Notes: a model not told the origin generated them from the sequence alone. 64,000 bases of DNA from Leucoraja ocellata (GCA_036785375.1 JAWMAR010000424.1:558001-622000); one strand, 5' to 3'; positions 5,855 to 43,386 are shown, counted from the first letter of the stretch. Numbers and translations: made by a program.

Positions 5855-6298
5855 TTCCTCCAAAGATCACTGGATCCAATGGACATCAAACCATGCAACA
5901 TCTTGAAAAAGAAATGGCCACTTGGTGGGTTTGTCCATTCCGACCTCGTGAAAATATAATTCGCTTATACCTAAGGAGGAAGGGGGAAATATATGACATG
6001 AGAAATACTATTTTAGATTGGGACAGCAGAAAATCTACTGAAAACAGAAATGGAAAGATCAACGGAGAGGGTCACAATGAAGCGAGCATTCTTATGAATT
6101 CAAATTATGTCAATGCATCTTTTACACCATTGGAACCCAAATATGACACTGATGCAGATGGGTTTTCCAGTGTGATGATCAATGTGGAAATATATCCAGA
6201 TGTTAACCAGGATGCAGGGGCTGAATTAACCATTGAAGTTCAACATAAATCACTGAAACAGCCGATATCAAACACTTTGATACTGGATGTTAAAGGAG
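5855..6298 (+). CDS. Gene A: post-TM Ig C1-like domain 1 (both canonical Cys lost; long internal insertion)
   Basis: ctag|TTCCTCCAAAG ... GGAG|gtaaag, 444 nt, phase 1-1, in frame with ORF 5893-6309. Motifs VPPKI, TWWVCPFRP (vs CxVxGFxP), DGFSSV, LTIEVQHKSLKQPI (vs YxCxVxHxSLxxP). Confidence 0.85.
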
Positions 6299-7601
6299 GT
6301 AAAGTATAAATGTTTTCTTTAATCATTAATGTCTATATATTGTGATTTCATTCTGAATGTCTTCAGAGTCATAGAGTGTACAGCGTAGGAACAGGCCCTT
6401 CAGCCCAACTTGCCCAAGCCGACCAACTTTGTCCCATCTGCCTGCGTTGGGTCCATATCCCTCTAAACCTGTTCTATCCATGTACCTGCCTAAATATGTC
6501 TTAAAAATTGTGATAGTACCTACCTCAACTATCTCGTCTGGCAGCTTGTTCCATACACTCACCATCTTTGTATGAAAAGGTTACCCCTCAGATTCCGATA
6601 AAATCTTTCCACCCTCCTCATCTTAAATCTATGTCCTCTGGTCCTCGATTCACCTACTCTGGGCAAAAGACTGTGCATCTACCCGATCTATTCCTCTGAT
6701 GATCTTCTACACCTCTATTTGATCACTCTCATCGTCCTGCGCTCCAAGGAATAGAGTCCTAGCCTGCTCAACCTCTCCCTATAGCTCAGGCCCTCGGGTC
6801 CTGGCAACATCCTCGTAAATCTTCTCTGCACCCTTTCCAGCTTGACAACATCTTTCTTGTAACAAGTTGTCCAAAACTGAACACAATACTCAGTATTTCA
6901 ATCAATACTCATTGAAATAAATGCGTGATTATGCGTTCATATTAACATCTATAATTTGTAACATTGATGTGTTTTATGAAATGAGAGCGTGGAACAGCAC
7001 AACACAGGAACGGCCCCTTTGGCCGACAATGTCCATGTTGAACATGATGCCAAGATAAACTAATCTCTGCTGCTTGCACGCAATCCATGTCCCTCCATTC
7101 CCTGCATATTCATGTGCCTATCTATAACCATATAACAATTACAGCACGGAAACAGGCCATCTCGGCCCTACAAGTCCATGCCGAACAATTTTTTTTTCCC
7201 CTTAGTCCCACCTGCCTGCACTTATACCATAACCCTCCATTCCCTTCTCATCCATATGCCTATCCAATTTATTTTTAAATGATACCATCTAATAGCTTCT
7301 TAAACACCACCATTGTATCTACCTCCACCACCATCCCTGGCAACGTGTTCCACGCTGTGTTTAACAATGAACTTTGCCCCTCACCTCTCCTTTAAACTTT
7401 GCCACTGTAATCTTAAAGCTATGCCCTCCAGTCTTTGACATTTCTACCTTGGGAAAAATATTCTGACTGCCTACCTTTTATCATGTATGCCTCGATGGGC
7501 CGAAGGGCCTGTTTCCACGTTGTACCTCTAAACTTAACTAAATTATATCAGGACCATTCTCTGGTTGGTAATAGGATGTTCAATTGTCTGATGACAACTA
7601 A

Positions 7602-9563
7602 TACATAGACAATAGGTGCAGGAGTAGGCCATTCGGCCCTTCGAGCCTGCAACGCCATTCAATATAATCATGGCTGATCATCCAACTCAGTATCCTGTAC
7701 CTGCCTTCTCTCCATACCCCCTGATCCCTTTAGCCACAAGGGTCACATCTAACACCCTCTTAAATATAGCCAATGAACTGGCCTCAACTACCTTCTGTGG
7801 CAGAGATTCACTACTCTGTGAAAAATATTTTTCTCATCTCAGTCCTAAAAGACTTCCCCTTTATCCTTAAACTGTGACACCTTGTTCTGGACTTCCCCAA
7901 CATCGGGAACAATCTTCCTGCATCTAGCCTGTCCAACCCCTTAAGAATTTTGTACGTTTCTATAAGATCCCCCCTCAATCTTTTAAATTATAGCGAGTAC
8001 AAGCCGAGTCTATCCAGTCTTTCTTCATATGAAAGTCCTGACATCCCAGGAATCAGTCTGGTGAATCTTCTCTGCACTCCCTCTATGACAAGAATGTCAT
8101 TCCTCAGATTAGGAGACCAAAACTGTACCCAATACTCCAAGTGTGGTCTCACCAAAAACCTGTACAACTGCAGTAGAACCTCCCTGCTCTTATACTCAAA
8201 GCCTGTTGCTATGAATGCTAACATACCATTCGCTTTCTTCACTGCCTGCTGCACCTGCATGCCTACTTTCAATGACTGGTGTACCATGACACCCAGGTCT
8301 CGTTGCATCTCCCCTTTTCCTAATCGGCCACCATTCAGATAATAGCCTACTTTCTTGCTTTTGCCACCAAAGTGGATAACCTCACATTTATCCACATTAT
8401 ACTGCATCTGCCATCCATTTGCCCACTCACCCAACCAATCCAAGTCACCTTGCAGCCTCCTAGCATCCTCCTCACAGCTAACACTGCCCCCCAGCTTCAT
8501 CCGCAAACATGGAGATGTTGCATTCAATTCCCTCGTCCAAATCATTAATATATATTGTAAATAGCTGGGGTCCCAGCACCGAGCCTTGCGCTACCCCACT
8601 AGTCACTGCCTGCCATTCTGAAAAGGAACCGTTTACTCCTACTCTTTGCTTCCTGTCTGCCAGCCAGTTCTCTATCCACATCAATACTGAACCCCCAATA
8701 CCGTGTGCTTTAAATTTGCATACTAATCTCTTATGTGAGACCTTGCCGAAAGCCTTCTGAAAGTCCAGATATAACACATCCACTGGTTCTCCCTTATCCA
8801 CTCTACTAGTTACATCCTCGAAAAATTATATAAGATTCGTCAGACATGATTTACCTTTCGTTAATCCATGCTGACTTTGTCCAATGATTTCACCACTTTC
8901 CAAATGTGCTGCTATTCCATCTTTAATAACTGACTCTAGCATTTTCCCCACTACCGATGTAAGACTAACTGGTCTGTAATTCCCCGTTTTCTCTCTCCCT
9001 CCCTTTTTAAAAAGTGGGGTTAAATTAGCTACCCCCCAATCCTCAGGAACCACTTCAGAATCTACAGAGTTTTGAAAAATTATCACTAATGCATCCACTA
9101 TTTCTGGGGGTACTTCCTTAAGTACTCTGGGATGCAGCCTATCTGGCCCTGGGGATTTATCGGCCTTTAATCCATTCAATTTACCTAACACCACTTCCCA
9201 GCTAACCTGGATTTCACTCAATTCCTCCATCTCATTTGACCCCCGGTCCCCTGCTATTTCCGGAAGATTATTTATGTCTTCCTTAGTGAAGACAGAACCA
9301 ATGTAGTTATTCAATTGGTCTGCCATGTCCTTGTTCCCCATGATCTGTGCATCTGTTTCTGACTGCAAGGGACCTACATTTGTTTTAACTAATCTTTTTC
9401 TCTTCACATATCTATAAAAACTTTTGCAGTCAGTTTTAATGTTCCCTGCCAGTTTTCTTTCATAATCTATTTTCCCTTTCCTAATTAAGCCCTTTGTCCT
9501 CGTATGCTGGACTTTGGATTTTTACCAGTCCTCTGGTAGGCTGCTTTTTCTAGCTAATTTGGA
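7602..9563 (-). mobile_element. CR1 LINE, degenerate
   Basis: ORFs 8826-9407, 8478-8801 and 7988-8545 carry CR1 RT motifs ([30 protein letters not shown]). Confidence 0.92.
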
Positions 9564-9776
9564 TGCTAATACATTTGCAATGGGGCGACTAGAACTGCAC
9601 GCATTACTCCAACTGTTGCCTAACCAAAGTCTGCAGACATGCAACATGACCGTAACTCTTTTAGGAGATTCTCTCATCAGTCGACTCAAAGTCACGGAAA
9701 ATTCACACAGTAATGTAATATATTCTTGCTTTTGTGAATTCCAACTAGTTGATTTGTTTGTTTTCTTTTCTCAAAG

Positions 9777-10154
9777 TGCCACCCAAGGTTTCAAACATCT
9801 TCAAACCCTCCTGCATCATTCACAATGAATCTACATCTTTGATCTGTTCAATCACTGGGTTTAAACCGAGACCTTTACGTATCACGTGGCAACGAAAGAG
9901 AAAGAACATGGAGGCAGAAGAAATAGTTCGAATGGAGGAGGACAACAGGACAACTATTCACGGTGGTGACGGGGAGATGTCCACATATAAACATTACATC
10001 AGTGAGATGAAGCATGATGATGAATCCTACAGCATCACTAGTGTACTAGAGATAGTGCCTGATATACAGCAAGATCAACACTCGCTTTACACCTGTAAAG
10101 TACATCACAGCGGCACCAGTGACCAGGAGAGAGAAATCAAGTTAATGATTGCAG
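9777..10154 (+). CDS. Gene A: Ig C1-set domain 2 (both Cys present)
   Basis: tcaaag|TGCCACCC ... GCAG|gtatat, 378 nt, phase 1-1. Motifs LICSITGFKP, ITW, YSITSVL, YTCKVHH. Confidence 0.9.
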
Positions 10155-11069
10155 GTATATAATACTTCCATCTAAGCCTTGTATTGACAGAGGGTGCAGA
10201 GTGCTTACTTATTTGGAATGGTGTCTTAAATATCATACCACGACCATTAATGTACGCAGAGCTAATGTGAGAGTCCAGGACCAGACTCGGAGTAAAAGGA
10301 TATACCTTTAGAATGGAGATGAGGAGGAATTTCTTTAGTCAGAGGTTGGTGACTCGGTGGAGTTCATTGCTACAGACAGCTGTGGAAGACAAGTCATTGG
10401 GTTTTTCAAAGCGGACATTCATAGGTTCTTGATTAGTAAGAGTGTCAAAGGTTATGGGGAGAAGGCAGGAGAATGGGGTTAAGAAGGAAAAATAGATCTA
10501 CCATGATTGAATGGCGCAGTTGAGACGATGGGCTGAATGGCCTAATACTGACTTCTACACTGCCTTTTACAAGGGGAATGATTTTGAATGGTTTTGGGGG
10601 AAAAAAAACAATAATGGGATACAATTGTATTGGGGTTAATGAAGTCATTCATTTTACAAAAATTATATGTGTCTTTTTCATAGTTTTCAAAAACAAGGCC
10701 AAACGTCTAATCCTTAGTTTTGCGAATCTGCTTCTGTTTGAATATAGAAACAAGGAACTGTAGATGCTGGCGAAAGATAGACACAATGTGATGGAGTAAC
10801 TCAGCGGGTCATAGAAACTAGGTGCAGGAGGAGGCCATTCGGCCCTTCGAGCCAGCACCGCCATTCATTGTGATCATGGCTAATCGTCCCCTATCAATAA
10901 CCCGTGCCTGCCTTCTCCCCGTATCCCTGACTCCACTAGCCCGTAGAGCTCTATCTAACTCTCTCTTAAATAGGGTCAGGCAGCATCTCTGGAGAAAAGG
11001 ATGGGTGACATTTTGGGTCGGGGCCCTGCTATCTTGGCTTGTGTTTGACGTCTTGTTTTTTTATTTCAG

Positions 11070-11378
11070 TCATTCCAAAAGTGGAATTAAAGTGCCACAC
11101 AGACAAGATACTTGATGGTGTACCCATGACGATAAGCTGTCAAATAAATGCGTTTTACCCCAAAGACATCACAGTGAAATGGCTGAAAAACGATGAAGAG
11201 ATGTTGCAGAATTTCAAAGTTGCTGAGCCAGTAATTGGTCAGGACGGTCTCTATCATGTGGCAAGTGATGTGGAGATAGTCCCCACCAGGGCTGAGTCAA
11301 CAGCCAAATATACATGCCGAGTGTCCCATTCGAGCCTCACTGAGCCATTACACATTGAATGGGTTGCAGGTGAAATAG
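11070..11378 (+). CDS. Gene A: Ig C1-set domain 3 (both Cys present)
   Basis: tttcag|TCATTCCA ... ATAG|gtaggt, 309 nt, phase 1-1; an alternative in-phase donor lies at 11369. Motifs ISCQINAFYPKDITVKW, DGLYHVAS, YTCRVSHSSL. Confidence 0.92.
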
Positions 11379-12339
11379 GTAGGTATCAAAGTTTAAGCCA
11401 AGACTGCTTTCATCTGAACTTCTTAAACAGTCTTCAGTTGGTAATTCATTATGGATAGAGTGTAAGTGGAGAGGATGTTGCCGCTAGTGGGAAAGTCGAG
11501 GACCAGTGGCCACAGCCTCAGAATAAAACCACATACCTTTAAGAAGGAGACGAGGAGGAATTTCTTTAGTCAGAGGGTGGTGAATCTGTGGAATTCATTG
11601 CTGCCGATGGTGGTGAAGGTCAAATCAATGGATATTTTTAAATATTTCTTCATTAGTACGGGTGGTGGATTAGTACGGGTGTCGGGGGTTATGGGGAGAA
11701 GACAGCAGAATTGGGTTGAGAGGGAAAGATAGATCAACTATGATTGAATGGCAAATTAGACTAGATGGGCCGAATGGCCTAATTGTGCTCCTATAACTTA
11801 TGAGCGTATGAATTATCTAATGATATAGAACGTAGAACAGTACGGCACAACCGCTCGACCCACAATGTCTGACCAACACACATCTGCCTGCACATAATCC
11901 ATATCCATGTGCCTATCCAAAAATCTATTAAATGCCACTATCCTTTCTGCCTCAACCACCATCCCCGGGTAACGCGTTCCAGACACTCACCCTCTTCTAT
12001 ATTAATAAATGTGACTCACACATCTTCTTTAAAATTTGCCCCTCACATCTTAAAACTATGGCCTCTAATATTTGATTTTTCTATCCTTTTTTTTTCCAGA
12101 CAGAGGCTCTGACTGTCTACCCTATCTATGCCTCTCCCGATTTTATGTACCTCTATCAGGTCTCCCCACAATCACTGCCGTTCCAGAGAAAACCACTACA
12201 TTTATCTACTGTATTATTTTTATCCACAGTCTTTGAAAAGTGAAACACAGAGTGCTTGAGTAACCCAATTGGTCACACAGCATCTGTGGAGGGAATGGAC
12301 AGGGACTTTGTGGGTCAGAAGCCTTCTTCAGACAGATTA

Positions 12340-12932
12340 ATCTGTATGTGTGCGTGTGGCTGTTTGTGGCTNNNNNNNNNNNNNNNNNNNNNNNNNNNNN
12401 NNNNNNNNNNNNNNNNNNNNNNNNNNNNNNNNNNNNNNNNNNNNNNNNNNNNNNNNNNNNNNNNNNNNNNNNNNNNNNNNNNNNNNNNNNNNNNNNNNNN
12501 NNNNNNNNNNNNNNNNNNNNNNNNNNNNNNNNNNNNNNNNNNNNNNNNNNNNNNNNNNNNNNNNNNNNNNNNNNNTGTATGTATAGCTGTGTGTATGTGT
12601 GGCTGTGTANNNNNNNNNNNNNNNNNNNNNNNNNNNNNNNNNNNNNNNNNNNNNNNNNNNNNNNNNNNNNNNNNNNNNNNNNNNNNNNNNNNNNNNNNNN
12701 NNNNNNNNNNNNNNNNNNNNNNNNNNNNNNNNNNNNNNNNNNNNNNNNNNNNNNNNNNNNNNNNNNNNNNNNNNNNNNNNNNNNNNNNNNNNNNNNNNNN
12801 NNNNNNNNNNNTGTGTGTGTGGGTGTGTGGGGGTGTGGGGCTGTGTGTGTGTGTGGGGCTGTGTGTGTGGGTGTGTGGGGGTGTGGGGCTGTGTGTGTGG
12901 GGGTGTGGGGCTGTGTGTGTGTGTGTGGGGGG

Positions 12933-12989
<57 letters not shown>

Positions 12990-12990
12990 C
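12340..12990. repeat. (GT)n-rich microsatellite with assembly gaps
   Basis: GT/GTGGGG runs flanking N stretches. Confidence 0.9.
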
Positions 12991-15244: not shown

Positions 15245-15577
15245 TTTCATTGCCAGAGCTTACAGCAATTGAGGTCGATCCACTTTGCCCCGAAATGGGA
15301 AAGGAAGTAACACTCTCCTGCAAAGCTTACGGATTCTATCCTGAAGCAAATGAGATATTCTGGTTCAAAGACTTTGAGAAAGTGAAAGATCCATTCAAAG
15401 TAGGAATTACTCTGGGACCAAATGAACTGGACACAGAGAATGGTTGCTATTCACGTTTATCCAAGTGGAAATTCACACCAGCTGCTGTTGACCATGGAAA
15501 AGAATTTAAGATGAAAGTCCTTCATTCTACAACTTCAGGCAACCCCAACGCTTCCAGTTACACTTTAAAATTAAAAG
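15245..15577 (+). CDS. Gene A: Ig C1-like domain 4 (F-strand Cys replaced by Met)
   Basis: ctccag|TTTCATTG ... AAAAG|gtgaat, 333 nt, phase 1-1. Motifs VTLSCKAYGFYP, IFW, ENGCYSRLS, FKMKVLH. Confidence 0.9.
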
Positions 15578-16504: not shown

Positions 16505-16816
16505 GGATTCCAATCGTCGACGACATTAAGTATGAGCCACTAGTGGCTGCGTCTGGTTCGCAACATCGTCTCGTCTGCAAAGTTGATAACTTTTATCCAA
16601 AACAAATCAGAACAAGCTGGCTACGTAAAGGGAAACCAATATCCCATGGAGTCGAAGATGCAGTTATGAATGAGGATGAGAATGGATGTTTTCAGATGTG
16701 GTCCTCTTTGCGTATTAATCCAACTGATCTACAATTTGATGAAAAGATTTCCTTTCAAGTGAAGCATTCAAGGTTAAATACTCCAATAACAAAACAACTG
16801 TCTTTAAAACTTCCAG
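16505..16816 (+). CDS. Gene A: Ig C1-like domain 5 (F-strand Cys replaced by Phe)
   Basis: caacag|GGATTCCA ... TTCCAG|gtatgt, 312 nt, phase 1-1. Motifs LVCKVDNFYPKQIRTSW, ENGCFQMWSSL, ISFQVKHSRL. Confidence 0.9.
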
Positions 16817-17625: not shown

Positions 17626-19708
17626 GTCCTTGTAATAACAGTGGCCTGACACCAACATAAGGGTATATAGACTTTATTGGCTACAAAGCAATACAACTTA
17701 TCTCTTAAGAGTTCCACTTAAAACTAAAGGATAAGCCAGTGGGCGTAACTACAAATGCATGACTCATAACATGAGTCATCTACACCCCCCCCCCCCCCCC
17801 CCCCTCTTAAAGAATCAATAACAATACAGACCCTTAAACTAAGCAAAGCAAGTATCACAACCAATGACAGACCGGTGGAAAGTCAAACATAGTCCAGATA
17901 CTTCACGACTGGTCTGCAAACACGACGGCACGTGTACGATAGAGGCCATCTCTCCATTTTTGTTCTCGTGGGAAAGAGCTGGTGACTTCACTGCCGAGGG
18001 GGAGTGGACCAACGCCTCTGGAGTTGAAGAAGGAGACTGGCGCAGGCGAAGATGGAACAGACAGAGGAAATGTCGCAGGCATGGAATGTTGTGCTGGCAA
18101 GAGCATGCAAGGGTCACTAGACGCAGATTGAAATGAACTTGTACGATCCAGATAATATGGAGGAGGGACTGGCTCTTTCACAGGCAGAACGAAGATGTTG
18201 CCTGTTGCGTCTGTAGGTGCCGCCATCGGCTCTAACGATGTACGAGCGTGGCTCCGAAGCAAGGCCAGAAACTACCCCAATACGGTCGTGGCCTTTGTCA
18301 GTATGTAAGCGGACCACCTGTCCCTTGGTCAGCGGTGGCAGTGGCCTACTTGACTTGTCGAACCATTTCTTTTGTATTTCACGCTTCTGTTGCAACCTGG
18401 TTTGAACCTGTTCAGGCAGAAAGACATGTGGGATTAATGCTTGATCTGCTACGGGCAGCGGGGCATGGGTCTGCCTTGACAATAAGCATTGAGCAGGTGA
18501 ACCCAAGATGGGGTCACGGGAAATGTTGCGTAAATTGAGCAGATCCAGGAATATGTCAGATTTAGCCCTGTGAGAGTGTTCCTTGAGCTGTTTTGCACTT
18601 CTGACAGTCCACTCAGCCAGCCCGTTAGACTGTGGATATTCAGGGCTGCTGGTGATGTGGTGAAAATTCCAGCGTCTAGCAAACTCTTTGAATTGTTGGC
18701 TGGTAAACTGATTGCCATTTTCAGTCAGCAGCTTGCCTGGAGATCCGTGGATGGAAAAGTGACGAGATAATTTCGAAATAGGGCTGCTGAGAACATCAAT
18801 GTTGAACCATCTTGAATAAAGGGCCTGCCCCACTTGCATGGGATTGCGTGCGTTTGGCCCGAAGTTCGCGCGTGACGTCATTTGCGTCGTGCTTACTAAT
18901 TAGCTGGGTAGAAGGCGGACCGGCTGAATTTGGGCGTCACACGGCGTCAGGCGGTGATGTCATCACGCAACGCCACGCCGGGCGGTGACTTTATCTCGCA
19001 ACGCCATGCGCTAGGCGTACGTCGTCAAGACGCTGTGTACAACCGCAATACGCCTGCGTGCCGACAGGCCGTTGGCGCGTGAAGATTTCGGCCACTGCAA
19101 GAATTTCGGAGCACCTCGTGAGGTCGGGACCAGCCCCGCACAACTCCGTGCTTCTAAGTGGGACCGGCCCCGTGCGGACATAGGGTGCCCGTACGCCTCA
19201 AGCGACCACGAGGTCGCGTAATTTGCGAGCCTAGGTCGCATTAGTGGGACAGGCCCTTAAGAATCCACGAGCACCAGGTACTGCTTGCCGTGCCAGTAAA
19301 ATGTCAGCTGCCACCGTAGACCACGGGAGCGCAGGTACAGGATGTGGCAGAAGTGGTTGCTTTTGTTGATGAGGCACCAGACTATTGCACGCAGCACAAG
19401 CTGCCACATTTTCATTCATGTATTCGGCCATACCAGGTCAGTAAACATGTTTTTTGCCCGTGAAACTGGTTCTGGCCTCCAACTGGAGGCGTGGATTCGG
19501 ATTCCACTTCTGATACCATGTCGATTGTAGTCCTTATAATAACAGTGGCCTTACACCAACATAAGGGTATATAGACTTCATTGTCTACTAAGCAATACAA
19601 CTTCTCTCTGAGTTCCACTTAAAACTAAAGGAATGCAGCAGTCGAATGCTGACAACTAATGGGCGTAACTACAAATGCATGACTCATAACATGAGTCACT
19701 AATCTACA
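17626..19708 (-). mobile_element. Internally deleted Gypsy-type LTR retrotransposon (two LTRs, PBS, PPT, integrase remnant)
   Basis: LTRs at about 17626-17784 and 19519-19708. PBS TGGTATCAGAAG on the minus strand next to the 5' LTR; G-rich PPT at about 17785-17803. Integrase motifs PWSTVAAD, YLVLVDSYSRW, HITSSPEYPQSNGLAE. Confidence 0.88.
18820..19257. mobile_element. PIF/Harbinger-type MITE nested in the Gypsy integrase
   Basis: TIRs AGGGCCTG(C/T)CCCACT and TSD TAA. Removing it restores integrase YLVLVDSYSRW. Confidence 0.85.
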
Positions 19709-19712
19709 TCAA

Positions 19713-20030
19713 CTTTGCCTCCTACCTTATCTCCTATCACAAATGACCCGGCTCCAGGGCTACTGAAAGTGAAGCAAGCTGTTAATCTCGGAGTCTCCTT
19801 GACATCCTATGTTCCTGCTCAAATCCAAGACAAGTGGCTTCTAGATGGGGAGCTTTGCCAAGGAAGGTGTGAATGCTCTCCTGAGATCACAGATGATGGT
19901 TTGTTTTAATCTAATTTGAGCATAATGTTGGAGGCAGGAATAAGTGATCACAGAAGGTTGCATCAAATGTCAGGTGCTTCATGTGAGGGCAGAAACATTC
20001 AGGAGAAGGAATTCCAATTACTCTCTGAAG
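19713..20030 (+). pseudogene. Gene A: disabled Ig C1-like exon (pseudo-exon)
   Basis: Reads (A)LPPTLSPI...SLTSYVPAQIQDKW...TDDGLF* with an in-frame TAA at 19907-19909. The F-strand motif IKCQVLH lies in a shifted frame. The donor GAAG|gtgaat is intact, but the acceptor reads tcaa instead of tcag and abuts an LTR ending at 19708. Confidence 0.75.
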
Positions 20031-21948: not shown

Positions 21949-21993
21949 ATTATGACAAAAACGAAAATGATGTCAATGAAAAAGTCGATGAAG
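21949..21993 (+). CDS. Gene A: 45-nt micro-exon copy 1 (DYDKNENDVNEKVDE)
   Basis: ttttttattctgcag|ATTATG...GATGAAG|gtaaaa; 45 nt, phase 1-1, no stop. Confidence 0.75.
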
Positions 21994-22986: not shown

Positions 22987-23031
22987 ATTATGGCAAAAAC
23001 GAAACTGATGTCAATGAAAAAGTCGATGAAG
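22987..23031 (+). CDS. Gene A: micro-exon copy 2 (DYGKNETDVNEKVDE)
   Basis: ctgcag|...|gtaaaa; 45 nt, phase 1-1. Confidence 0.72.
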
Positions 23032-27629: not shown

Positions 27630-28097
27630 CCATATAACAATTACAGCACGGAAACAGGCCATCTCGACCCTTCTAGTCCGTGCCGAACACATAATCTCCC
27701 CTAGTCCCATATACCTGCGCTCAGACCATAACCCTCCATTCCCTTCCCATCCATATAACTATCCAATTTATTTTTAAATGATAAAAACGAACCTGCCTCC
27801 ACCACCTTCACTGGAAGCTCATTCCACACAGCTACCACTCTGAGTAAAGAAGTTCCCCCTCATGTTACCCCTAAACTTCAGTCCCTTAATTCTCAAGTCA
27901 TGTCCCCTTGTTTGAATCTTCCCTACTCTCAGTGGGAAAAGCTTTTCCACGTCAACTCTGTCTATCCCTCTCATCATTTTAAAAACCTCTATCAAGTCCC
28001 CCCTTAACCTTCTGCGCTCCAAAGAATAAAGCCCTAACTTGTTCAACCTTTCTCTGTAACTTAGTTGCTGAAACCCAGGCAACATTCTAGTAAATCT
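27630..28097 (-). mobile_element. CR1 3' fragment nested in DIRS (same subfamily as 23527-25570)
   Basis: Near-identical to the 3' end of the 664-aa ORF (PGFQQLSYRERLNKLGLYSLERRRLRGD). Confidence 0.9.
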
Positions 28098-31000
28098 ATC
28101 GAACTGTGCCCTGCTTCCGGCATCAGATAGGAGGAGAGTGCGCCTCTGGCACAATAGATGCACTATAACTTAGTTTATAGTTATAGTACAGTTAATAGGA
28201 ACTGCAAGACATCCGTTATCCGAACTGTGTTGTATTTGTTCGGACAGTCCTATGCCTTGAAATGGCCTCTTCAGAATCTGCAGACTAACAAGTTATACGT
28301 TCATGTAGTGGATGATTGCTCCCTGTAACTGGGTTCACTAGGAGGTCCCTGCTCTTGGGTACAGCCATTACTGGCTGGACTATAATTCCCAACATTTTTG
28401 GGGACCAGGCTTGAGTAGGCCAATCTGGCACTACCAATATGCCTGTGGCTTAGTCTTGCTTGATTTTTGTCAAGCATCGGTTTGTGAGACAAATTGGCGG
28501 AAAGTATACATAAACATTCCTCCCCAATTGAGGGAGAAAGCATCCACTGCCTTGCTCCTGGATCCAGCTCGCAGGACACATATCTGGGTAACTAATGGGT
28601 AGTCTAGAAGCAAATGGATCAACATCTGGTATGCCAAATCGTGTATTTATTTTGTTAAATACTGCCTGATTCAACATCCATTCTGTGTTGTTATTAAACA
28701 TTCGGGATCCAGCATCTGTCACCGTGTTATATCTACCTCGTAGATTTCCCAAATATTCCTCTCGATACACCAGTGCCAAATGAGGTTCGACAATCTGTCA
28801 TAAGATACAGATTTTACACCACCCTTGTTAATGGATATATGCCACCGCAGTGGTGTTATCAATCTGAATTTGAACAAGCACCGGTTGTATATTGCTACAG
28901 AAACCCTTGAGTCCATATTGTGCCCCCAACAATTCTGGGTAATTGATTCCATATGTTGGGGAATTACAGACTCCTGCTCATTCCATCTGCCCCCACAGCT
29001 CTAGACTGTGTTGGTGGCTCCCCTTAGCCGCTGGCATAGGTCTGAAGAACCCTCAATGGCTTTCAAGCAAAATTTCCCTGAGCTGTCTCCCATTCGTTAT
29101 CCACCATAGTTATCCAACAATGGCCTCTGCTGACAATCCAGTTTTGCCAATTCAGCCTGCATGTAATCTGAGTGTTCGTTCCTTTGCTTGCTGTAAGTTC
29201 TGGTAATGCAAAGGCCCGTACTGCTGGGAATGCAGCTACTATTTCCCAATTACACTCGCTGTTTGCCTGATAGATGGCTAGTATTTGACTATCAGGTCAT
29301 TGCAGGCTGAATTAATATTGTTGTTTGCCCCTAGGCAAAGTCACCAACATATTTACTGTTTTTGATAGTAAATTCTAGGTAATCAATTACCCTTGTAGGT
29401 GTCAATTTTGATTTAACTGGATGAATGAGGTAACCAATTCTTTCAAACAGGGTTTTGGTTTGCTTGACTGATGCTTCTGCCAATTCTTGGTGACTCCAAA
29501 ATGGAAATGTCCTCCAAATATGCCATTACCATGTGGTTTTGAGACCTTTGTAGTCCCAGAATTGGTTTCCGTAGTTTAGTCAATAGTCTAGGAGCTGATG
29601 AAAACCCATTTGGCAGAGCCATGCCATCCAGTTAAACTTCAAATATCTCCTGTTCTTAATGAATAGACACCGAATAGTATGCATCTTTGAGGTCGATGCA
29701 TGCCATGTGACCATTTTATAGGAAGCTCCTATAAAACAGTAGTTAGACCGTAACAAAAAATTGCTGTTTCTAAAAGTCTGTACTGCACAAATGAGTTAAA
29801 CCTGGATGAAATGACATCCTCCATCTGTCACCTGTCCTGGAAGGCAATCCTGCCCAAAATACTGGGCCTGCCTTGAAGACAATTCCAGTCCGAGTTCTAA
29901 GCCTGCTTGGAACCTATGTATGTTGTGCAGTAAAAAATAATCACATGTTGTTATCTGTTTTTTAAAACCAGATCTGAAATTCATGTTATTATCATTTTGA
30001 ACAAAAACACAAGAGTAAATTACCAACATGTAACTGGTCCATAATCCCTTGTTTCGGTAAACCCAGATCCACCTACCTCCATGGCTACCGGTGGTCTTGT
30101 GGTAAGCCCAAAGGCCCCTGATGCGGGTTCCTTTTCTCTCCTTGATTGGGAGTAGGTCTGGTAGGGAGTGTGGATTCCATGTTTCTCCTGACCTCTGCTT
30201 GGGTCTTGGTCTGAAAACCTTATCATACTGAGCCTGCCTTGTCGGACAATTCTGGCCATAATTCTGAGTCTGCCTTGAAAGACGACTGATCATATTTCCG
30301 TGCCCAGCTTTCAAGCTACCACCGGCTTCAGTGAACTGCTTACCCCCTATGGAGGTGTGGGGTGTGTTGTCGCCTACTGACGAAGTTTTGCTTGTCGTTG
30401 GTACCTTGATTGGTCCGACAGCTTTTGCTTCCTTCTTCTGGTCTTACCTGAAGATAGGATTCGACGGCTGGTTTCTCCAAAGTCACCCTGATAGCGCTGT
30501 TCCCTTGCCGGCATTTGTGCGGATATTCTGCCAACTGCTGTCTCTTGAGGCCATATGCATGTGCTTCAGTATGTTCATACTTTAATTCGAGATCAGTTAC
30601 CTACTGATCTCGAAGCCAAATTTCGTTTGAACGTTATGTGAGGTTCAAATGACAAATGAATGGTATTGTATAGTATTGTAATTCAAGATCAGTTACCTAC
30701 TGATCACTCACACTCCTCTCCATTGAGAGTGAGATTTGTAGGTAGCCCTGAAAACAGGGGCTGCCGCAGGCCCCTGAGGATACCTGCGCTGACATGGCCC
30801 CTCCAGCGGGCCTAAATGAGATTCTTGCTTTGGGTCAGACTGAAACTGACAGTGAATGCTCCTCTCCTCAGAGCAGGAGACATTTTCTAGATCTCTATCC
30901 AGGGAAGCACCCAGTGGAACCTGGGTGATTGCAGAAGTATTTCTTTTCTTTTGTGCTTATTATTTATTTTATGTAAAGCTTTTTGGTGCAAGTTAACTTA

Positions 31001-32712
31001 AACAGTGCTATATAAGTAAAAGTTACTTCCTTTCTTCTGCTTGTCCCTGGGAAGGTCCCCCCCCCTGCTTTTGTACTCTGCTTCAGAGTGGTTTCTTCCA
31101 TATGTACTTCCCCCTCCAATGGGGAAGACATTGGGTTGCCCCATTATGCGAGGCTCCCGGTACTGCCTGCTGCTGTAGGCCCCGGGCTGACACCGCTCTC
31201 TCCTTAGAGCAGATCATTGTTGGAGCAACTTCTCCAAAAGTTGCTCCTATGTGGGAGAGTCGTCCTCAGACACTCTCCGTTGAGGGAGGGTATCCCTTTC
31301 CATCCCCGGACTCTTCTGAGTCAACGGGTTGTTTGACTTGCGGGTGGATTTTCCCATACTGCAGGACCCCCAACGGAGCTCTCCTCCTGCAACAAGTCTC
31401 CTGCCGGCTCAGCTGCCGGCGCTGTGTCGGGAAACAGTTATGGTCTGAACGCAGGTGTATGGGACTAGGGGAGAATACGTGTTCTGCACGGACTGGAGGT
31501 GTCGAGATGGCCTGTTTCCGTGCTGTAGTTGTTATATGGTTATATGGTTAAACACCGTCGCCCGCTACTGGGAAATGCTGCGGTCTTCGGCAGCCGACTT
31601 CCCCGCGGACCGTATCCTCGACATCTGGGCCCTGAAACTACAAAAAGTTTCAAGCCCGAAAGAACGAGGTAAGTGTTTCAACTTTCCTTACCTGCCCATC
31701 CTAACGGCCTGGGAGAATGCAGTGCTTCTCCAGTCCATCGCACGTTGCGTTCAGACGTAATGACGCGCACGCAGACGGACGGCCCTTGTTCACGTATTCA
31801 CGTAAAATTAAAGGTAGACAAAAATGCTGGAGAAACTCAGTGGGTGGGGCAGCATCTATGGAGCAAAGGAATAGGCGACGTTTCGGGTCGAGACCCTTCT
31901 TTAGACTGATGTGGGCGGGGCGGTGTGGCGTGGAAAAAAAGGAAGATGTGGAGACAGTAGGCAGTGGAAGAGCTGGAAGGGGAGGGGAAGGAGGGTGAAT
32001 TCAAGGACTACCTGAACTTGGAGAAGTCAATGTTCATACCGCTGGGGTGTAAACTACCCAAGTAAAATATGAGGTGCTGTTCCTCCAATTTGCTCTGGAC
32101 ATGGAGGTGGCCCAGGACTGAAAAGTCGGATTCGGAATGGGAGGGGGAGTTGATGTGCTGAGCCACCGGGAGATCAGGTTGGTTATTGCGAACTGTGTGG
32201 AGGTGTTGGTGAAGCGATCGACAAGCCTGCGTTTGGTCTCACCGATATAGAGTAGTTGACACCTGGAAAAGCGGATGCAATAGATGAGGTTGGAGGAGGT
32301 GCAGGTGAACCTCTGCCTCAGCTGGAAAAACTGCTTGGGTCCTTGGATGGAGTCGAGGGGGGAGGTAAAGCGACAAGGGAAAGTACCAGAGGAAGGGGGC
32401 GATTTGGGTAGGAAGGGACGAATTGACCAGGGAATTGGTTCAGACAGTCCTTGCTTTCGCCCTCCTTCCGCTCCCCTTCATAGCTGTCCCACAGCCTACT
32501 CTCACTGCCTCTTCCTTTCTTTTTCCCGCCCCAGCCCCCCACATCAATGTGAAGAAGGGTCTCGACACAAAACGTTCCCTATTTCCTTCGCTCCATAGAT
32601 GCTGCCTCACCCGCTGAGTTACTCCAGCATTTTTGTCTACCTTCGTTTTTTCCAGCATCTGCAGTTCCTTCTTAAACATCAGGTTTAATTAAGCTCTTTT
32701 TTTATTCTGCAG

Positions 32713-32757
32713 ATTATGGCAAAAAAGAAAATGATGTCAATGAAAAAGTCGATGAAG
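32713..32757 (+). CDS. Gene A: micro-exon copy 3 (DYGKKENDVNEKVDE)
   Basis: ctgcag|...|gtaaaa; 45 nt, phase 1-1. Confidence 0.72.
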
Positions 32758-34402
32758 GTAAAAGTCTTGATTTCCAATAGTTACTGTATTTTGAATGTTT
32801 GCTTCAAATAGAAATTTAGATCATTACACATGATCCAAATGTTTTCAAAACACAAAGTGCTGGAGGAACTCGGTGGCTCAGGCTGAATCTGGAAGGAATG
32901 TTTAGTTTAGAGATAGAGCTCATAAACAGACCCGTCGGCCAACCGAGTCCGCACCGACCAACGATCACCACACACTAACAATATCCAATACTCGAGGGAC
33001 AATTTATAACTTTTACCGATGCCAGTTAACCTCCAAATCTGCACGTGTTTAGAGTGGGGGAGGTATCCGGAGAAACCCCACGTGGTCATGGGGAATGTCC
33101 AAACTCCACACAGACAGCACCTGTGGTCAGGATGGAGCCCGGGTCTCTGGTGCTGTGAGGCAGCAACTCTACCGCTGCGCCGCCCGTTATCTCTTCAAAC
33201 TTTACACCAGATTTATTTAATTATTTCTTTCACAACAACTTTTCATGTTGAATATTTGTTACTGATGTTGACAATAGATGATTTTGGATGTTCAGTTGTT
33301 TCAAATCTGTTTGGGTGTCATAGATCACGGGAAAAGGCCCATCGGCCCAACTTGCCCTTGTCAACCAAGGTGCCCCATCTAAACTAGTCCCACCTGCCCA
33401 CTATTGGCCCATATCCCTCTGAACCTATCCTATCCATGTTCCTGCCCAAGTGTTTAATACTCTGACTTTGTAAGTGGCAATTTGATTTGACTAATGTCAG
33501 GTATAATTAAAGGGAGACAAAATTGCTGGAGAAACTCAGTGGGTGAGGCAGGATCTATGGAGCAAAGGAATAGGCGACGTTTCGGGTCGAGACCCTTCTA
33601 TAGACTGATGTGGGCGGGGCGGTGTGGCGGGGAAAAAAAGGAAGATGTGGAGACAGTAGGCAGTGGAAGAGCTGGAAGGGGAGGGGAAGGAGGGTGAAAG
33701 CAAGGACTACCTGAAATTGGAGAAGTCAATGTTCATACCGCTGGGGTGTAAACTACCCAAGTAAAATATGAGGTGCTGTTCCTATAATTTGCTCTGGACA
33801 TGGAGGAGGCCCATGACAGAAAAGTCGGATTCGGAATGGGAGGGGGAGTTCAAGTGCTGAGCCACCGGGAGATCAGGTTGGTTATTGCGAACTGTGTGGA
33901 GGTGTTGGGCGAAGCGATCGACAAGCCTGCGCTTGGTCTCACCGATATAGAGTAGTTGACACCTGGAACAGCGGATGCAATAGATGAGGTTGGAGGAGGT
34001 GCAGGTGAACCTCTGCCTCAGCTGGAAAGATGCTTGGGTCCTTGGATGGAGTCGAGGGGGGAGGTAAAGTGACAAGGAAAAGTACCAGAGGAAGGGGGCG
34101 ATTTGGGTAGGAAGGGACGAATTGAACAGGGAATTGGTTCAGACAGTGCTTGCTTTCGCCCTCCTTCCCCTCCCATTCATTGCTGTCCCACAGCCTACTC
34201 TCACTGCCTCTTCCTTTCTTTTTCCCGCCCCACATCAATGTGAAGAAGGGTCTCGACCCAAAACGTTCCCTATTTCCTTCGCTCCATAGATGCTGCCTCA
34301 CCCGCTGAGTTTCTCCATCATTTTTATCAACCTTTAATTTTTCCAGCATCTGCAGTTCCTTCTTAAACATCAGGTTTAATTAAGCTCTTTTTTATTCTGC
34401 AG

Positions 34403-34447
34403 ATTATGGCAAAAAAGAAATTGATGTCAATGAAAAAGTCGATGAAG
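34403..34447 (+). CDS. Gene A: micro-exon copy 4 (DYGKKEIDVNEKVDE)
   Basis: ctgcag|...|gtaaaa; 45 nt, phase 1-1. Confidence 0.72.
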
Positions 34448-35739
34448 GTAAAAGTCTTCATTTCCAATAGTTACTGTATTTTGAATGTTTGCTTCAAGTA
34501 GAAATTTAGATCATTACACATGATCCAAATGTTTTCAAAACACAAAGTGCTGGAGGAACTCGGTGGCTCAGGATGAATCTGGAAGGAATGTTTAGTTTAG
34601 AGATAGAGCTCATAAACAGGCCCGTCGGCAAACCGAGTCCGCACCGACCAACGATCACCACACACTAACAATATCCAATACTCTAGGGACAATTTATAAT
34701 TTTTACCGGTGCCAATTAACCTCCAAATCTGCACGTGTTTAGAGTGGGGGAAGTATCCGGAGAAACCCCACGTGGTCATGGGGAATGTCCAAACTCCACA
34801 CAGACAGCACTAATTAAAGGGAGACAAAAATGCTGGAGAAACTTAGGGGGTGAGGCAGCATCTATGGAGCAAAGGAATAGGCGACGTTTCGGGTCGAGAC
34901 CCTTCTTTAGACTGATGTGGGCGGGAGGTGTGGCGGGGAAAAAAGGAAGATGTGGAGACAGTAGGCAGTGGAAGAGCTGGAAGGGGAGGGGAAGGAGGGT
35001 GAAAGCAAGGATTACCTGAAATTGGAGAAGTCAATGTTCATACCGCTGGGGTGTAAACTACCCAAGTAAAATATGAGGTGCTGTTCCTATAATTTGCTCT
35101 GGACATGGAGGAGGCCCAGGACAGAAAAGTCGGATTCGGAATGGGAGGGGGAGTTGATGTGCTGAGCCACCGGGAGATCAGGTTGGTTATTGCGAACTGT
35201 GTGGAGGTGTTGGGCGAAGCGATCGACAAGCCTGCGCTTGGTCTCACCGATATAGAGTAGTTGACACCTGGAACAGCGGATGCAATAGATGAGGTTGGAG
35301 GAGGTGTAGGTGAACCTCTGCCTCAGCTGGAATCACTGCTTGGGTCCTTGGATGGAGTTGAGGGGGGAGGTAAAGCGACATGTGTAGCGTTTCCTGCGGT
35401 TGCAAGGGAAAGTACCAGAGGAAGGGGGTGATTTGGGTAGGGAGGGACAAATTGAACAGGGAATGGATCCAGGTAGTCCTTGCTTTCACCCTCCTTCCGC
35501 TCCTCTTCACAGCTGCCCCACAGCCTACTCTCTCCGCCTCTTCCTTCCTTTTTCCCGCCCCAACCCCCCACATCAATGTGAAGAAGGGTCTCGACCCAAA
35601 ACGTTCCCTATTCCTTCGTTCCATAGATGCTGCCTCACCCGCTGAGTTTCTCCATCATTTTTATCTACCTTTGTTTCGTCCAGCATCTGCAGTTCCTTCT
35701 TGAACATCAAGTTTAATTAAGCTCTTTTTTATTGTGCAG

Positions 35740-35784
35740 ATTATGGCAAAAAAAGAAATGATGTCAATGAAGACGCCGATGAAG
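35740..35784 (+). CDS. Gene A: micro-exon copy 5 (DYGKKRNDVNEDADE)
   Basis: gtgcag|...|gtaaaa; 45 nt, phase 1-1. Confidence 0.72.
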
Positions 35785-37447
35785 GTAAAAGTCTTGATTT
35801 CCAATAGTTACTGTATTTTGAATGTTTGCTTCAAGTAGAAATTTAGATCATTACACATGATCCAAATGTTTTCAAAACACAAAGTGCTGGAGGAACTCGG
35901 TGGCTCAGGCTGAATCTGGAAGGAATGTTTAGTTTAGAGACAGAGCTCATAAACAGGCCCGTCGGCCAACCGAGTCCGCACCGACCAACGATCACCACAC
36001 ACTAACAATATCCAATACTCTAGGGACAATTTATAACTTTTACCGATGCCAGTTAACCTCCAAATCTGCACGTGTTTAGAGTGGGGGAGGTATCCGGAGA
36101 AACCCCACGTGGGCATGGGGAATGTCCAAACTCCACACAGACAGCACCTGTGGTCAGGATGGAGCCCGGGTCTCTGGTGCTGTGAGGCAGCAACTCTACC
36201 GCTGCGCCACTGTGCCGCCCGTGATCTCTTCAAACTTTACACTAGATTTATTTGATTATTTCTTTCACAACAAAGTTTCATGTTGAATAAAGTAGTTATA
36301 TTTGTTACTGATGTTGACAATAGATGATTTTGGATGTTCAGTTGTTTCAAATCTGCTTGGGTGTCATAGATCACGAGAAAAGGCCCTTCGGCCCAACTTG
36401 CCCTTGTCAACCAAGGTGCCCCATCTAAACTAGTCCCACCTGCCCACGATTGGCCCATATCCCTCTGAACCTATCCTATCCATGTTCCTGCCCAAGTGTT
36501 TAATACTCTGACTTTGTAAGTGGCAATTTGATTTGACTAATGTCAGGTATAATTAAAGGGAGACAAAAATGCTGGAGAAACTCAGTGGGTGAGGCAGCAA
36601 CTATGGAGCAAAGGAATAGGCGACGTTTCGGGTTGAGACCCTTCTTTAGACTGATGTGGGCGGGAGGTGTGGCGGGAAAAAAAGGAAGATGTGGGGACAG
36701 TAGGCAGTGGAAGAGCTGAAAGGGGAGGGGAAGGAGGGTTAAAGCAGGGACTACCTGAAATTGGAGAAGTCAATGTTCATACCGCTGGGGTGTAAACTAC
36801 CCAAGTAAAATATGAGGTGCTGTTCCTCCAATTCGCTCTGGACATGGAGGTGGCCCAGGACAGAAAGGTCGGATTCGGAATGGGAGGGGGAGTTCAAGTG
36901 CTGAGCCACCGGGAGATCAGGTTGGTTATTGCGAACTGTGTGGAGGTGTTGGGCGAAGCGATCGACAAGCCTGCGCTTGGTCTCACCGATATAGAGCAGT
37001 TGACACCTGGAACAGCGGATGCAATAGATGAGGTTGGAGGAGGTGCAGGTGAACCTCTGCCTCAGCTGGAATGACTGCTTGGGTCCTTGGATGGAGTTGA
37101 GCGGGGAGGTAAAGCGACAAGGGAAAGTACCAGAGGAAGGGGGCGATTTGGGTAGGAAGGGACGAATTGAACAGGGAATTGGTTCAGACAGTCCTTGCTT
37201 TCGCCCTCCTTCCCCTCCCCTTCACTGCTGTCCCACAGCCTACTCTCACTGCCTCTTCCTTTCTTTTTCCCGCCCCACATCAATGTGAAGAAGGGTCTCG
37301 ACCCAAAACGTTCCCTATTTCCTTCGCTCCATAGATGCTGCCTCACCCGCTGAGTTTCTCCATCATTTTTATCTACCTTTGTTTTGTCCAGCATCTGCAG
37401 TTCCTTCTTAAACATCAGGTTTAATTAAGCTCTTTTTTATTCTGCAG

Positions 37448-37492
37448 ATTATGGCAAAAAAGAAAATGATGTCAATGAAAAAGTCGACGAAG
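37448..37492 (+). CDS. Gene A: micro-exon copy 6 (DYGKKENDVNEKVDE)
   Basis: ctgcag|...|gtaaaa; 45 nt, phase 1-1. Confidence 0.72.
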
Positions 37493-38297
37493 GTAAAAAT
37501 CTTCATTTCCAATAGTTACTGTATTTTGAATGTTTGCTTCAAATAGAAATTTAGATCATTACACATGATCCAAATGTTTTCAAAACACAAAGTGCTGGAG
37601 GAACTCGGTGGCTCAGGATGAATCTGGAAGGAATGTTTAGTTTAGAGACAGAGCTCATGAACAGGCCCGTCGGCCAACCGAGTCCGCACCGACCAACGAT
37701 CACCACACACTAACAATATCCAATACTCTAGGGACAATTTATAACTTTTACCGATGCCAATTAACCTCCAAATCTGCACGTGTTTAGAGTGGGGGAGGTA
37801 TCCGGAGAAACCCCACGTGCTCATGGGGAATGTCCAAACTCCACACAGACAGCACCTGTGGTCAGGATGGAGCCCGGGTCTCTGGTGCTGTGAGGCAGCA
37901 ACTCTACCGCTGCGCCACTGTGCCGCCCGTGATCTCATCAAACTTTACACTAGATTTATTTGATTATTTCTTTCACAACAAAGTTTCATGTTGAATAATG
38001 TAGTTATATTTGTTACTGATGTTGACAATAGATGAGTTTGGATGTTCAGTTGTTTCAAATCTGCTTGGGTGAGACACTTAGTCATAGAGTCATAGTTCAC
38101 GGGAAAAGGCCCTTTGGCGCAACTTGCCCTTGTCAACCAAGGTGCCCCATCTAAACTAGTCCCACCTGCCCGATTGGCCCATATCCCCCTAAATCTATCC
38201 TATCCATGTTCCTGCCCAAGTGTTTAATACTCTGACTTTGTAAGTGCCAATTTGATTTGACTAATGTCAGGTTTAATTAAACTCTTTTATTCTTCAG

Positions 38298-38342
38298 ATA
38301 ATGGCAAAGCAAAAAATGATGTCAGTGAAGAAGTCAATAAAG
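38298..38342 (+). CDS. Gene A: micro-exon copy 7, most divergent (DNGKAKNDVSEEVNK)
   Basis: ttcttcag|ATAATGG...AATAAAG|gtaaaa; 45 nt, phase 1-1. Confidence 0.75.
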
Positions 38343-41942: not shown

Positions 41943-42089
41943 TGTAAGGTAGCAACTCTACCGCTGTGCCAGTGTTGTCCTGAAACTGCTATTTGAAGGA
42001 TTTTGATGAATCTTTTGAAGATTATATGTTATTCTATGTGCATGATTTTCCATATCCACCCAAATGCAACTATTTAGATGGTAAAAATC

Positions 42090-42750
42090 GGTTTAGGTTT
42101 ATTGTTGTCATGTGTACCAAGGTATAGTATTAAGCTTTATTTTGCCTGCTATCCAAACAGATAAAAAAAAACATACATATATACAATCAGTTGAAACAGA
42201 AATAAAACAGATAGAGTAAAGGGGAAGATACAGAGTGCAGGATATAGTTCTCAGCATTGTGGCGCATCAGTTACAGAGACAAAGTCCAATGTCCATGATA
42301 GGGTAGAGGTGAATCCTAGCTTATGGAAGGACTGTTCAGAAACCTGATAACAGAGGGGAAGAAGCTGCTCCCGAGTCTGGTGGTGTGTCCTTTCAAGCTT
42401 CTGTACCTTCTCCATGACAGAAGCAGGGAGAGAAAGGAATTACCGGGGCGGGGCATGTCTTTGCTTATGTTGGCTTCTTTCCCGAGACAGTGTGAAGTGT
42501 GGATGGAGTTGATAGTCTGTGTGATGGACTGGGCCACATTTCCATCTCTCTGCAATATTGTGCGGTCTTGAGCAGAGCAGTTCCCAAAACAAGCTGTGAT
42601 GTAAACGATGAGTATGTTTTCTACAGTGCATCTGCAGAAGTCTGCAAGGTGACATACCGAATTTCCTCAGTCTCCTCAGGAAGTCGAGGTGTTGCTGTGC
42701 CTGCTAGACTGTAGCATCAATGTGGTTGGTCCACGACAGGTCATTGGTTA
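42090..42750 (-). mobile_element. Rex1/L2-type LINE 3' fragment
   Basis: RRYRSLKGHTTRLGSSFFPSVIRFLN C-terminal motif. Confidence 0.7.
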
Positions 42751-43084
42751 TATTAGCGACAATAGTCATTTACTTTAAACATTGGAATTGGTGAATCTTT
42801 GGAATTTATTGCCACAGACGGCTGTGGAGGCCGTCATTGGGTATTTTTAAAGCTTTGTAAGGGTATCAACAGGTTACGGGGAGAAGGCAGGAGAATGGGA
42901 TTGAGAGAGAAAAATAGATCAGCCATGATTGGATCTTGGAGTAGACTCAATGGGCTGAATGGCCTAATTCTGCTCCTGTGTGTTATGGTCTTATGTTTGG
43001 ATTAAAATAAGTTGATTATGTCTCAATAACCAATGACTGTCATTATGGGTTTCACATTATTTATTATAAATGATATTCCAACAG

Positions 43085-43386
43085 AAAAGTTGAAGGTGGT
43101 TTCAAAGATAACATGCCGTCCAGAGAAACCTAAGGCTGGGCACCCTGTAATGCTGTCCAGTGAAGTTCGAGACGCAAGTGCAGATCAAGCCCATATCATC
43201 TGGTACAAAGATACTTACCCTTTTGATGAACATCGGTATGTTACAAACACGCCATTTGAAAATGAATATGGTTTCACTACGACTTTAACTTACACACCAA
43301 AGGAAGCAGATGGCAATCATATCCAAGTTTTCATTGATGTTAACATGGAAGAACATGTGAGAGATTTCGCCTTGATATTAAGTTGA
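43085..43386 (+). CDS. Gene A: terminal exon, Ig-like domain lacking both canonical Cys, ends at TGA
   Basis: ccaacag|AAAAGTTG, phase 1, frame of ORF 43033-43386. Motifs PKAGHPVMLSSEV, HIIWYKD, FTTTLTYTP resemble domain 4 (PEMGKEVTLSC, IFWFKD, WKFTP). Confidence 0.82.

Follow-up and report, generated by a model that had tools for sequence, protein, structure and literature searches.

A 64,000-nucleotide stretch of a repeat-rich animal genome, that of the skate Leucoraja ocellata (GCA_036785375.1 JAWMAR010000424.1:558001-622000; hereafter the window), carries on its plus strand the 3' half of a gene which, judged by its sequence, is a member of the B7-H6 (NCR3LG1) family. This part of the gene specifies a transmembrane (TM) segment and, beyond it, a long tail of immunoglobulin (Ig) domains related to the C1-set, most of which lack the pair of cysteines on strands B and F that forms the canonical disulfide of the fold. 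It is very probable that this tail is cytosolic, folded and ancient, and the losses of the cysteine pair appear to be mostly old and fixed. The protein is an unusual and ancient variant of a known family, for which we infer a function below. Its ectodomain exons lie upstream of the window, and the only other genic content of the window is a single exon of a paralogue.

Joining 14 exons by their coordinates gave an 834-residue product without internal stops and with all exons in frame. Acceptors are AG in 14/14 cases and donors GT in all 13 internal exons, the lengths of which are divisible by 3. The product is 94.7% identical to Leucoraja erinacea LOC129705966 and 85.6% to Amblyraja radiata LOC116984368. 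From 5' to 3' the exons encode the TM segment, domains D1 to D5, seven acidic microexons and the terminal domain D7; the exon for D6 is dead (Table 1). At the B/F positions the domains read W/I (D1), C/C (D2), C/C (D3), C/M (D4), C/F (D5), V/C (D6 pseudo-exon) and S/V (D7). The C1-set cysteine pair is present only in D2 and D3, and D1 and D4–D7 are called disulfide-less C1-derived domains here because they do not contain it. At the rate of pair loss seen in the pre-TM domains of relatives (7/150), loss in 5 of 7 domains has a p-value of 4e-6, which is indicative only, the domains being non-independent. All seven B/F assignments given in a preliminary description of the window are present in the sequence, as are the FxP and VxH motifs that it had noted in D1–D5 and the C-strand tryptophan in every domain except D1, where a leucine takes its place. 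It had also called the replacements mostly hydrophobic, and 6/7 are of this kind.

To place this pattern in context, homologue searches recovered 3, 8 and 52 named proteins and 150 cluster representatives. We assembled a set of 34 proteins that bear names and are close to full length, with a single representative for each gene, leaving out isoform duplicates, partial records and paralogues with D1 repeats; as the whole-protein alignment misregisters five of these, in which domains are duplicated or differently ordered (Hypanus, Mobula, Hemitrygon, one Protopterus and Microcaecilia), some counts refer to the remaining 29. In the 34 proteins both cysteines are present in the V domain (34/34), the ectodomain C1 (34/34), D2 (34/34) and D3 (33/34), and the corresponding counts are 0/34 for D1, 0/34 for D4, 7/33 for D5, 1/29 for D6 and 3/24 for D7. 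Among the 29 cleanly aligned proteins, D2 and D3 each keep the pair in 29/29, and lone cysteines without a partner are retained on strand B of D4 (27/29), D5 (29/29) and D7 (17/21) and on strand F of D6 (26/26); the F-strand cysteine of D5 is found in 6/29. The invariant pair in D2/D3, together with the retained lone cysteines, indicates that cysteines at these sites are constrained and not drifting. An ENGC(Y/F) motif that had been reported as common to D4 and D5 does occur in both domains in the window; however, its cysteine is found in D5 of 15/29 orthologues and in D4 of only 2/29 (Leucoraja and Amblyraja), where it is skate-specific. We accordingly rejected it as a shared conserved feature, and this narrow distribution of the D4 cysteine suggests that the match is recent rather than ancestral.

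Losses of the F-strand cysteine in D1, D4 and D5 and of the B-strand cysteine in D6 are specific to their positions and shared with bony vertebrates, which argues that most of them are ancient and have become fixed. In a tree built from 101 domains of 13 proteins (109 columns; the midpoint root serves only for drawing), the ectodomain C1 and each of D1–D7 fell into one group apiece, with support of 98-100/92-99 and 11-13 sequences per group, and these groups span chimaera, sharks, rays, bichir, coelacanth, lungfish, axolotl and frog. Since each domain position forms one group across jawed vertebrates, the seven-domain tail and most of its losses should predate the split of cartilaginous and bony vertebrates. 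Mean pairwise identity is 33-43% in the tail domains versus 43% in V and C1. In some amphibians D5 reads C/C, implying regain or separate losses there. Changes belonging to the skate lineage are the replacement of the D1 B-strand cysteine by tryptophan (in batoids) and of the D7 B-strand cysteine by serine, the death of the D6 exon and an expansion of the microexons. It is extremely improbable that the exons behind the TM are leftovers, relaxed or on their way to becoming pseudogenes: although the D6 pseudo-exon and the batoid or skate losses of the B-strand cysteines of D1 and D7 could be read in this way, six domains have open frames and splice together in frame, with D1-D2-D3 found as joined contigs, orthologues share the pattern, and the tail is nearly as conserved as the ectodomain. 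The preliminary description, which did not name the gene as B7-H6, had proposed repeated loss of the disulfide under relaxed selection in a cytosolic but still folded tail, and had held that orthologues retaining all cysteines would speak against it. They do not retain all of them, and the cytosolic and folded parts of that proposal are supported; its wording of relaxation does not fit the skate lineage, as the pattern is old and fixed and the cysteines of D2/D3 and of the lone sites are constrained.

The fact that only D2 and D3 strictly keep the pair, along with the extra cysteines in D1 (16/29), D5 (15/29) and D7 (21), could also mean that these two domains are redox-regulated, with the pair forming reversibly under oxidative stress and the tail acting as a stress sensor that controls display of the ligand. 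A precedent exists in titin, the cytosolic Ig domains of which hold buried cysteines that are sometimes oxidised (available text of PMC13031707), and human B7-H6 is induced by transformation and inflammation (available text of PMC6514059). Nevertheless, unpaired core cysteines are conserved equally well, so that packing alone explains the retention, and we consider such a switch unlikely. The lone conserved cysteines likewise weaken the argument that D2 and D3 must be bonded.

The protein is likely of type I topology with its tail facing the cytosol, as predicted from several features of the family's sequences. A signal peptide in orthologues and one TM segment would place the tail in the cytosol by standard topology. 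In all 34 proteins the net charge of the ten residues after the TM exceeds that of the ten before it, as per the positive-inside rule. For a wider view we used the 118 of the 150 representatives in which a hydropathy rule finds exactly one TM, 87 of which have at least one post-TM C1 domain. In these, both cysteines are present in 143/150 pre-TM versus 210/352 post-TM C1 domains (Fisher p 2e-18), N-glycan sequons show a threefold drop from 1.52 to 0.53 per 100 residues between the two sides, 180/189 replacements are hydrophobic, and the core tryptophan is kept in 351/352 post-TM domains. Long C1 arrays lying before the TM (P0120, P0159, P0209 and P0187) keep the pair in 31/31 aligned domains, and therefore array length alone is no cause of its loss. 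The cytosolic location put forward earlier is supported by the combination of topology, charge, sequon drop and post-TM concentration of pair loss. PH-like domains are of a cytosolic type, and the shark paralogues P0060 and P0067 have, after V-C1-TM, 7-8 D1-like repeats placed ahead of a C-terminal PH-like domain (PF25404 in P0060, E 5e-19).

A number of observations weigh against this interpretation. The compared domains come from related proteins, so that the p-values overstate the contrast. The sequon difference is mild in the 34-protein set (observed over shuffled expectation 1.34 pre-TM versus 0.88 post-TM), holds in only 23/34 proteins, and one D2 sequon is common to 12/34. The pair in D2/D3 is kept in 29/29, and 60% of post-TM domains keep theirs, neither of which is predicted if the disulfide is simply not needed. 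Three predicted relatives run C1 straight into D1 without a TM. Finally, the splice joint between TM and D1 rests on splice signals and database models: when contigs of four sequencing runs guessed as RNA were compared over 850-11500, D1 and D2 were adjacent in 3/4 runs and D1-D2-D3 joined in one, and the TM-D1 joint is not among the read joints listed (621 further joints and 71,307 pieces, in a table swamped by repeats), which shows neither its presence nor its absence.

Some of these observations would be accommodated by a dual topology, wherein skipping of the TM exon yields a secreted V-C1-D1...D7 form whose D2 and D3 need their disulfides, with the same domains cytosolic in the membrane form. 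The TM exon is symmetric (114 nt, phase 1-1) and could thus be skipped in frame, the relatives without a TM between C1 and D1 (P0045, P0085 and P0121) have the expected arrangement, and the invariant D2/D3 pair would find a reason. We nonetheless regard this as quite unlikely, as the TM is present in 22/22 listed full-length skate isoform models (P0001-P0023, the 270-residue fragment P0011 aside), P0045 is a partial genome prediction from a species whose RefSeq model has the TM, and the other five tail domains do without the pair while lone cysteines are equally conserved. The joint itself raises the question of whether a short-tailed B7-H6 was fused in annotation to a separate secreted multi-C1 gene, given that most of the supporting records are genome predictions. 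This has hardly any probability in light of the 87/118 single-TM relatives with C1 domains after the TM, the absence of a stop codon from the TM exon, the nurse shark record QTT61906.1, which unites all parts in one named entry, and a gap of about 6 residues between TM and D1 in 34/34 proteins.

Structure predictions are consistent with a maintained fold, as the preliminary description had supposed; along with the closeness of tail conservation to that of the ectodomain, this rests on Pfam C1-set matches in D2–D5 and on beta-sandwiches in AlphaFold models. The scores of D2, D3, D4 and D5 pass the 21-bit cut-off of Pfam C1-set (PF07654) and are far above those for the I-set, whereas D1 and D7 have no Pfam Ig match; hhalign returned, among the matches listed, 99.6% for D1 against D2, 93% for D7 against D2 and 85% for D7 against the ectodomain C1. 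ESM Atlas gave generic C1-set clusters only. D1, modelled with 34 aligned sequences, is predicted to be a beta-sandwich with a mean predicted local distance difference test (pLDDT) score of 83 and one disordered stretch. It superposes on Rst D2 (VIA Z 12.3, root mean square deviation 2.0, 102 aligned) and on the B7-H6 C domain (VIA Z 10.8, root mean square deviation 2.2, 97 aligned), and its best Foldseek matches mix C, I and V types of Ig domain. The model of the L. erinacea isoform P0008 begins with a signal helix, followed by the V and C1 domains, a single TM helix and five sandwiches, and a disordered acidic linker leads to the last sandwich. Tail domains have a pLDDT of mostly 80-94 in the AlphaFold models; in that of P0008 it is about 90 in D7 and below 50 over the linker. 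A predicted complex of two copies of D1–D3 scored 0.00 with a mark of 0.32, which is no answer either way.

The assignment to the B7-H6 family draws on the L. erinacea orthologue P0008, to which the part encoded in the window is 94.7% identical and which includes the V + C1 ectodomain. The best three matches of P0008 in the PDB are human B7-H6 (E 1e-36; the next is at 8.5e-19), and the database names B7H6 or NCR3LG1 stand on three homologues, namely nurse shark QTT61906.1, axolotl and Rhinophrynus. The residues Thr127, Pro128 and Lys130, which contact NKp30 (available text of PMC3135353), are kept in 30/34, 33/34 and 25/34 family members respectively, and all three are present in the FG loop of the skate V domain. 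The type I, single-TM organisation of the family is predicted for the skate protein by hydropathy, the one model helix and the charge rule. Full-length homologues have the architecture signal peptide-V-C1-TM-(C1)x6-8 in a single chain, and are found in the skates L. erinacea, Amblyraja and Rhinoraja, many sharks and rays, Callorhinchus, Latimeria, Protopterus, axolotl, bichirs, newt, caecilian and frogs. Pfam searches of P0008 and P0036 gave only Ig families, with no sign of a Gag-like tail with immunoreceptor tyrosine-based inhibitory motif (ITIM), SH2 and SH3 motifs; hence the skate gene is not filed as a human-type B7-H6, and nurse shark and amphibian members likewise do without such a tail.

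Other relatives vary the theme. In P0143, V-C1-TM-D1 leads into a tachylectin domain (E 6e-30), suggesting that the family tail takes up varied modules. A distant group (P0107, P0117, P0135, P0140, P0173 and similar) has V-C1(-C1)-TM with 6-13 post-TM C1 domains, many of which have L or V at both cysteine sites, and may represent a second expansion of C1 arrays in the cytosol. An acidic YxN[IL] motif, which we take to resemble an SH2-binding site, occurs in the D6-D7 linker of 5/34 proteins, all from sharks (P0027, P0028, P0031, P0034 and P0036). It is absent from the skate linker and for this reason is not used in support of the skate tail.

The D6 pseudo-exon matches D6 of Rhinoraja at 63%, its F-strand cysteine being readable only after the frameshift. 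D6 is intact in Rhinoraja and sharks and missing from the Leucoraja and Amblyraja models; its loss is datable, and the dead exon offers a neutral control for the ratio of nonsynonymous to synonymous substitution rates. The microexons, 15 codons each, spread by intron duplications of 1.3-3 kb, the copies of which are 92-96% identical, and encode the predicted disordered linker. L. erinacea RefSeq isoforms vary in the number of microexons included. P0011, a transcript-derived skate fragment, passes from D2 into a different tail of 45 residues without a match in the window, and may be a short isoform or a paralogue. The V-set exon downstream belongs to a second B7-H6-family gene, making the locus a tandem cluster; Pristis LOC127577746, to which it is 75% identical, itself has the architecture V-C1-TM-C1x6. 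By comparison with L. erinacea no exon is missing from the D3-D4 intron, in which one of the gaps lies, and broken copies of the reverse transcriptase element are numerous elsewhere in the window.

Table 1. Features of the window, with positions counted from its first nucleotide
Feature	Coordinates	Strand	B/F residues	Remarks
Transmembrane exon	965-1078	+		114 nt, phase 1-1; basic residues after helix; one TM helix in model
D1, degenerate Ig domain	5855-6298	+	W/I	directly under membrane; lacks C-strand Trp; long disordered insertion
D2, C1-set domain	9777-10154	+	C/C	Pfam C1-set 49.4 bits; most conserved of the tail domains
D3, C1-set domain	11070-11378	+	C/C	Pfam C1-set 64.1 bits
Assembly gap (N run)	12372-12811			intronic; could hide an exon
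D4, C1-set domain	15245-15577	+	C/M	Pfam C1-set 32.7 bits
D5, C1-set domain	16505-16816	+	C/F	Pfam C1-set 50.7 bits
Open frame	18117-18899	-		weak integrase core match (rve, E 1.5e-4, below cut-off)
D6 pseudo-exon	~19716-20030	+	V/C	expected acceptor without AG; in-frame stop; +1 frameshift
Seven 45-nt acidic microexons	21949-38342	+		starts 21949, 22987, 32713, 34403, 35740, 37448, 38298
LINE-like (long interspersed nuclear element) insertion	23495-25489	+		intronic; 664-codon open frame; RVT_1 reverse transcriptase domain, E 5e-34
Retroelement-like frames	26984-30600			no Pfam match for the two tested
D7, terminal Ig-like domain	43085-43386	+	S/V	contains stop codon; no Pfam Ig match
Assembly gap (N run)	48623-48960			intronic; could hide an exon
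V-set exon of next tandem B7-H6-family paralogue	58437-58793	+		Pfam V-set; 75% identity to Pristis LOC127577746

Taken as a whole, the account that we consider best, and probable, is that of a cytosolic, disulfide-independent Ig scaffold beneath an NKp30 ligand. C1 exons would have been duplicated behind the TM exon before the cartilaginous and bony lineages separated. As the cytosol is reducing, D1 and D4–D7 could then have exchanged one or both of their cysteines for core-filling hydrophobic residues and the exchanges been fixed, with the remaining cysteines, paired in D2/D3 and single elsewhere, kept mainly as buried packing residues. The six post-TM domains are predicted to fold without need for the B-F disulfide. 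As to what they do, chances seem evenly balanced that the tail is a scaffold: it might act as beads-on-a-string binding modules that couple the ligand to adaptors, to trafficking machinery or to the cortex on engagement of NKp30, a role that would parallel the one proposed for the human Gag-like tail with its signalling motifs. The YxN[IL] motif of the shark linkers and the PH-like domain of the shark paralogues hint at such a role indirectly.

C1 domains often pair in Ig and MHC molecules, and tail-domain copy number varies widely across the relatives, which would also suit a cytosolic decoy or oligomerisation platform whose C1 domains self-pair, or mimic MHC or Ig, to cluster the ligand or bait viral proteins. 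Yet C1 domains of MHC and Ig are lumenal, leaving a cytosolic mimic without an obvious target, and from chimaera to frog the domains keep their order and identity, unlike in a fast arms race; we find this decidedly unlikely, even though cytomegalovirus US18/US20 remove human B7-H6 (available text of PMC6514059). A bolder version of the scaffold account has the ancestral jawed-vertebrate NKp30 ligand carry a cytosolic machine of seven distinct C1-set domains that signalled into the target cell, with a redox-switchable core in D2/D3, and was later replaced by the retroviral Gag-like tail in the lineage leading to humans. This is a tentative conjecture and rather doubtful, but if true the ancestral tail would also supply natural disulfide-free C1 scaffolds.

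C1-set domains are a hallmark of the extracellular parts of adaptive immune molecules such as Ig, TCR and MHC. An ordered inner array of them on B7-H6, from chimaeras to frogs, implies a large selected intracellular function, for which humans use a different tail, and offers a handle on what B7-H6 does inside the displaying cell. D4 and D5, as natural C1 folds apparently without a disulfide, should be of use in work on folding and in the design of intracellular antibodies. The weight of these findings is limited by the family being known, by the full shark sequence being already deposited as B7H6, and by the function being a matter of inference. Full-text literature searches, the coverage of which did not extend to key shark and Xenopus B7H6 papers, found no description of cytoplasmic C1 domains of B7-H6, and the elephant shark genome supplement gave no match on this subject. 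There is no mention of such a tail in the available portions of PMC12227049, PMC10751288, PMC13262535, PMC6514059, PMC2715080, PMC3135353, PMC13031707, PMC4536121, PMC12619710 and PMC11599192. Because the full shark chain of 1092 residues was deposited as B7H6, the tail itself has probably been remarked on already; the pattern of its cysteines by position, and how old that pattern is, may not yet have been described.

Among known proteins the nearest in kind is nurse shark B7H6 (QTT61906.1, 1092 residues), which has the same V-C1-TM-D1...D7 order, falls on the same branches of the domain tree and shares the B/F pattern except in D1 (Y/L) and D7 (C/V), at 31-56% identity per domain. The skate protein differs from it in the loss of D6, the expanded acidic microexons and the want of the YxN[IL] linker motif, and L. 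erinacea in a duplicated V-C1 pair. Also among the nearest are the NCR3LG1 models of axolotl and Rhinophrynus. Titin, filamin and palladin are intracellular Ig arrays, soluble proteins of I-set or filamin-type domains. The skate tail resembles titin-type arrays as a probably cytosolic string of predicted beta-sandwiches with buried cysteines that need not be bonded; however, its domains are C1-set and attached to an immune surface ligand with a TM, so that it is not a member of that class and may only work alike. UrIg2, the fourth PDB match, and other multi-C1 elasmobranch proteins similarly have a V followed by many C1 domains; in UrIg2 these lie before the TM, with the canonical disulfide in each domain of the solved V-C1-C2-C3 part (available text of PMC12227049). 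Human B7-H6, a ligand of the NK-cell receptor NKp30, is like the skate protein in being of type I with a V + C ectodomain, in giving the best PDB match and in the kept FG-loop contact residues. It is a protein of 454 residues with a Gag-like tail bearing ITIM, SH2 and SH3 motifs (available text of PMC2715080), in place of which the skate protein has a tail of about 800 residues made of Ig domains, with no Gag match.

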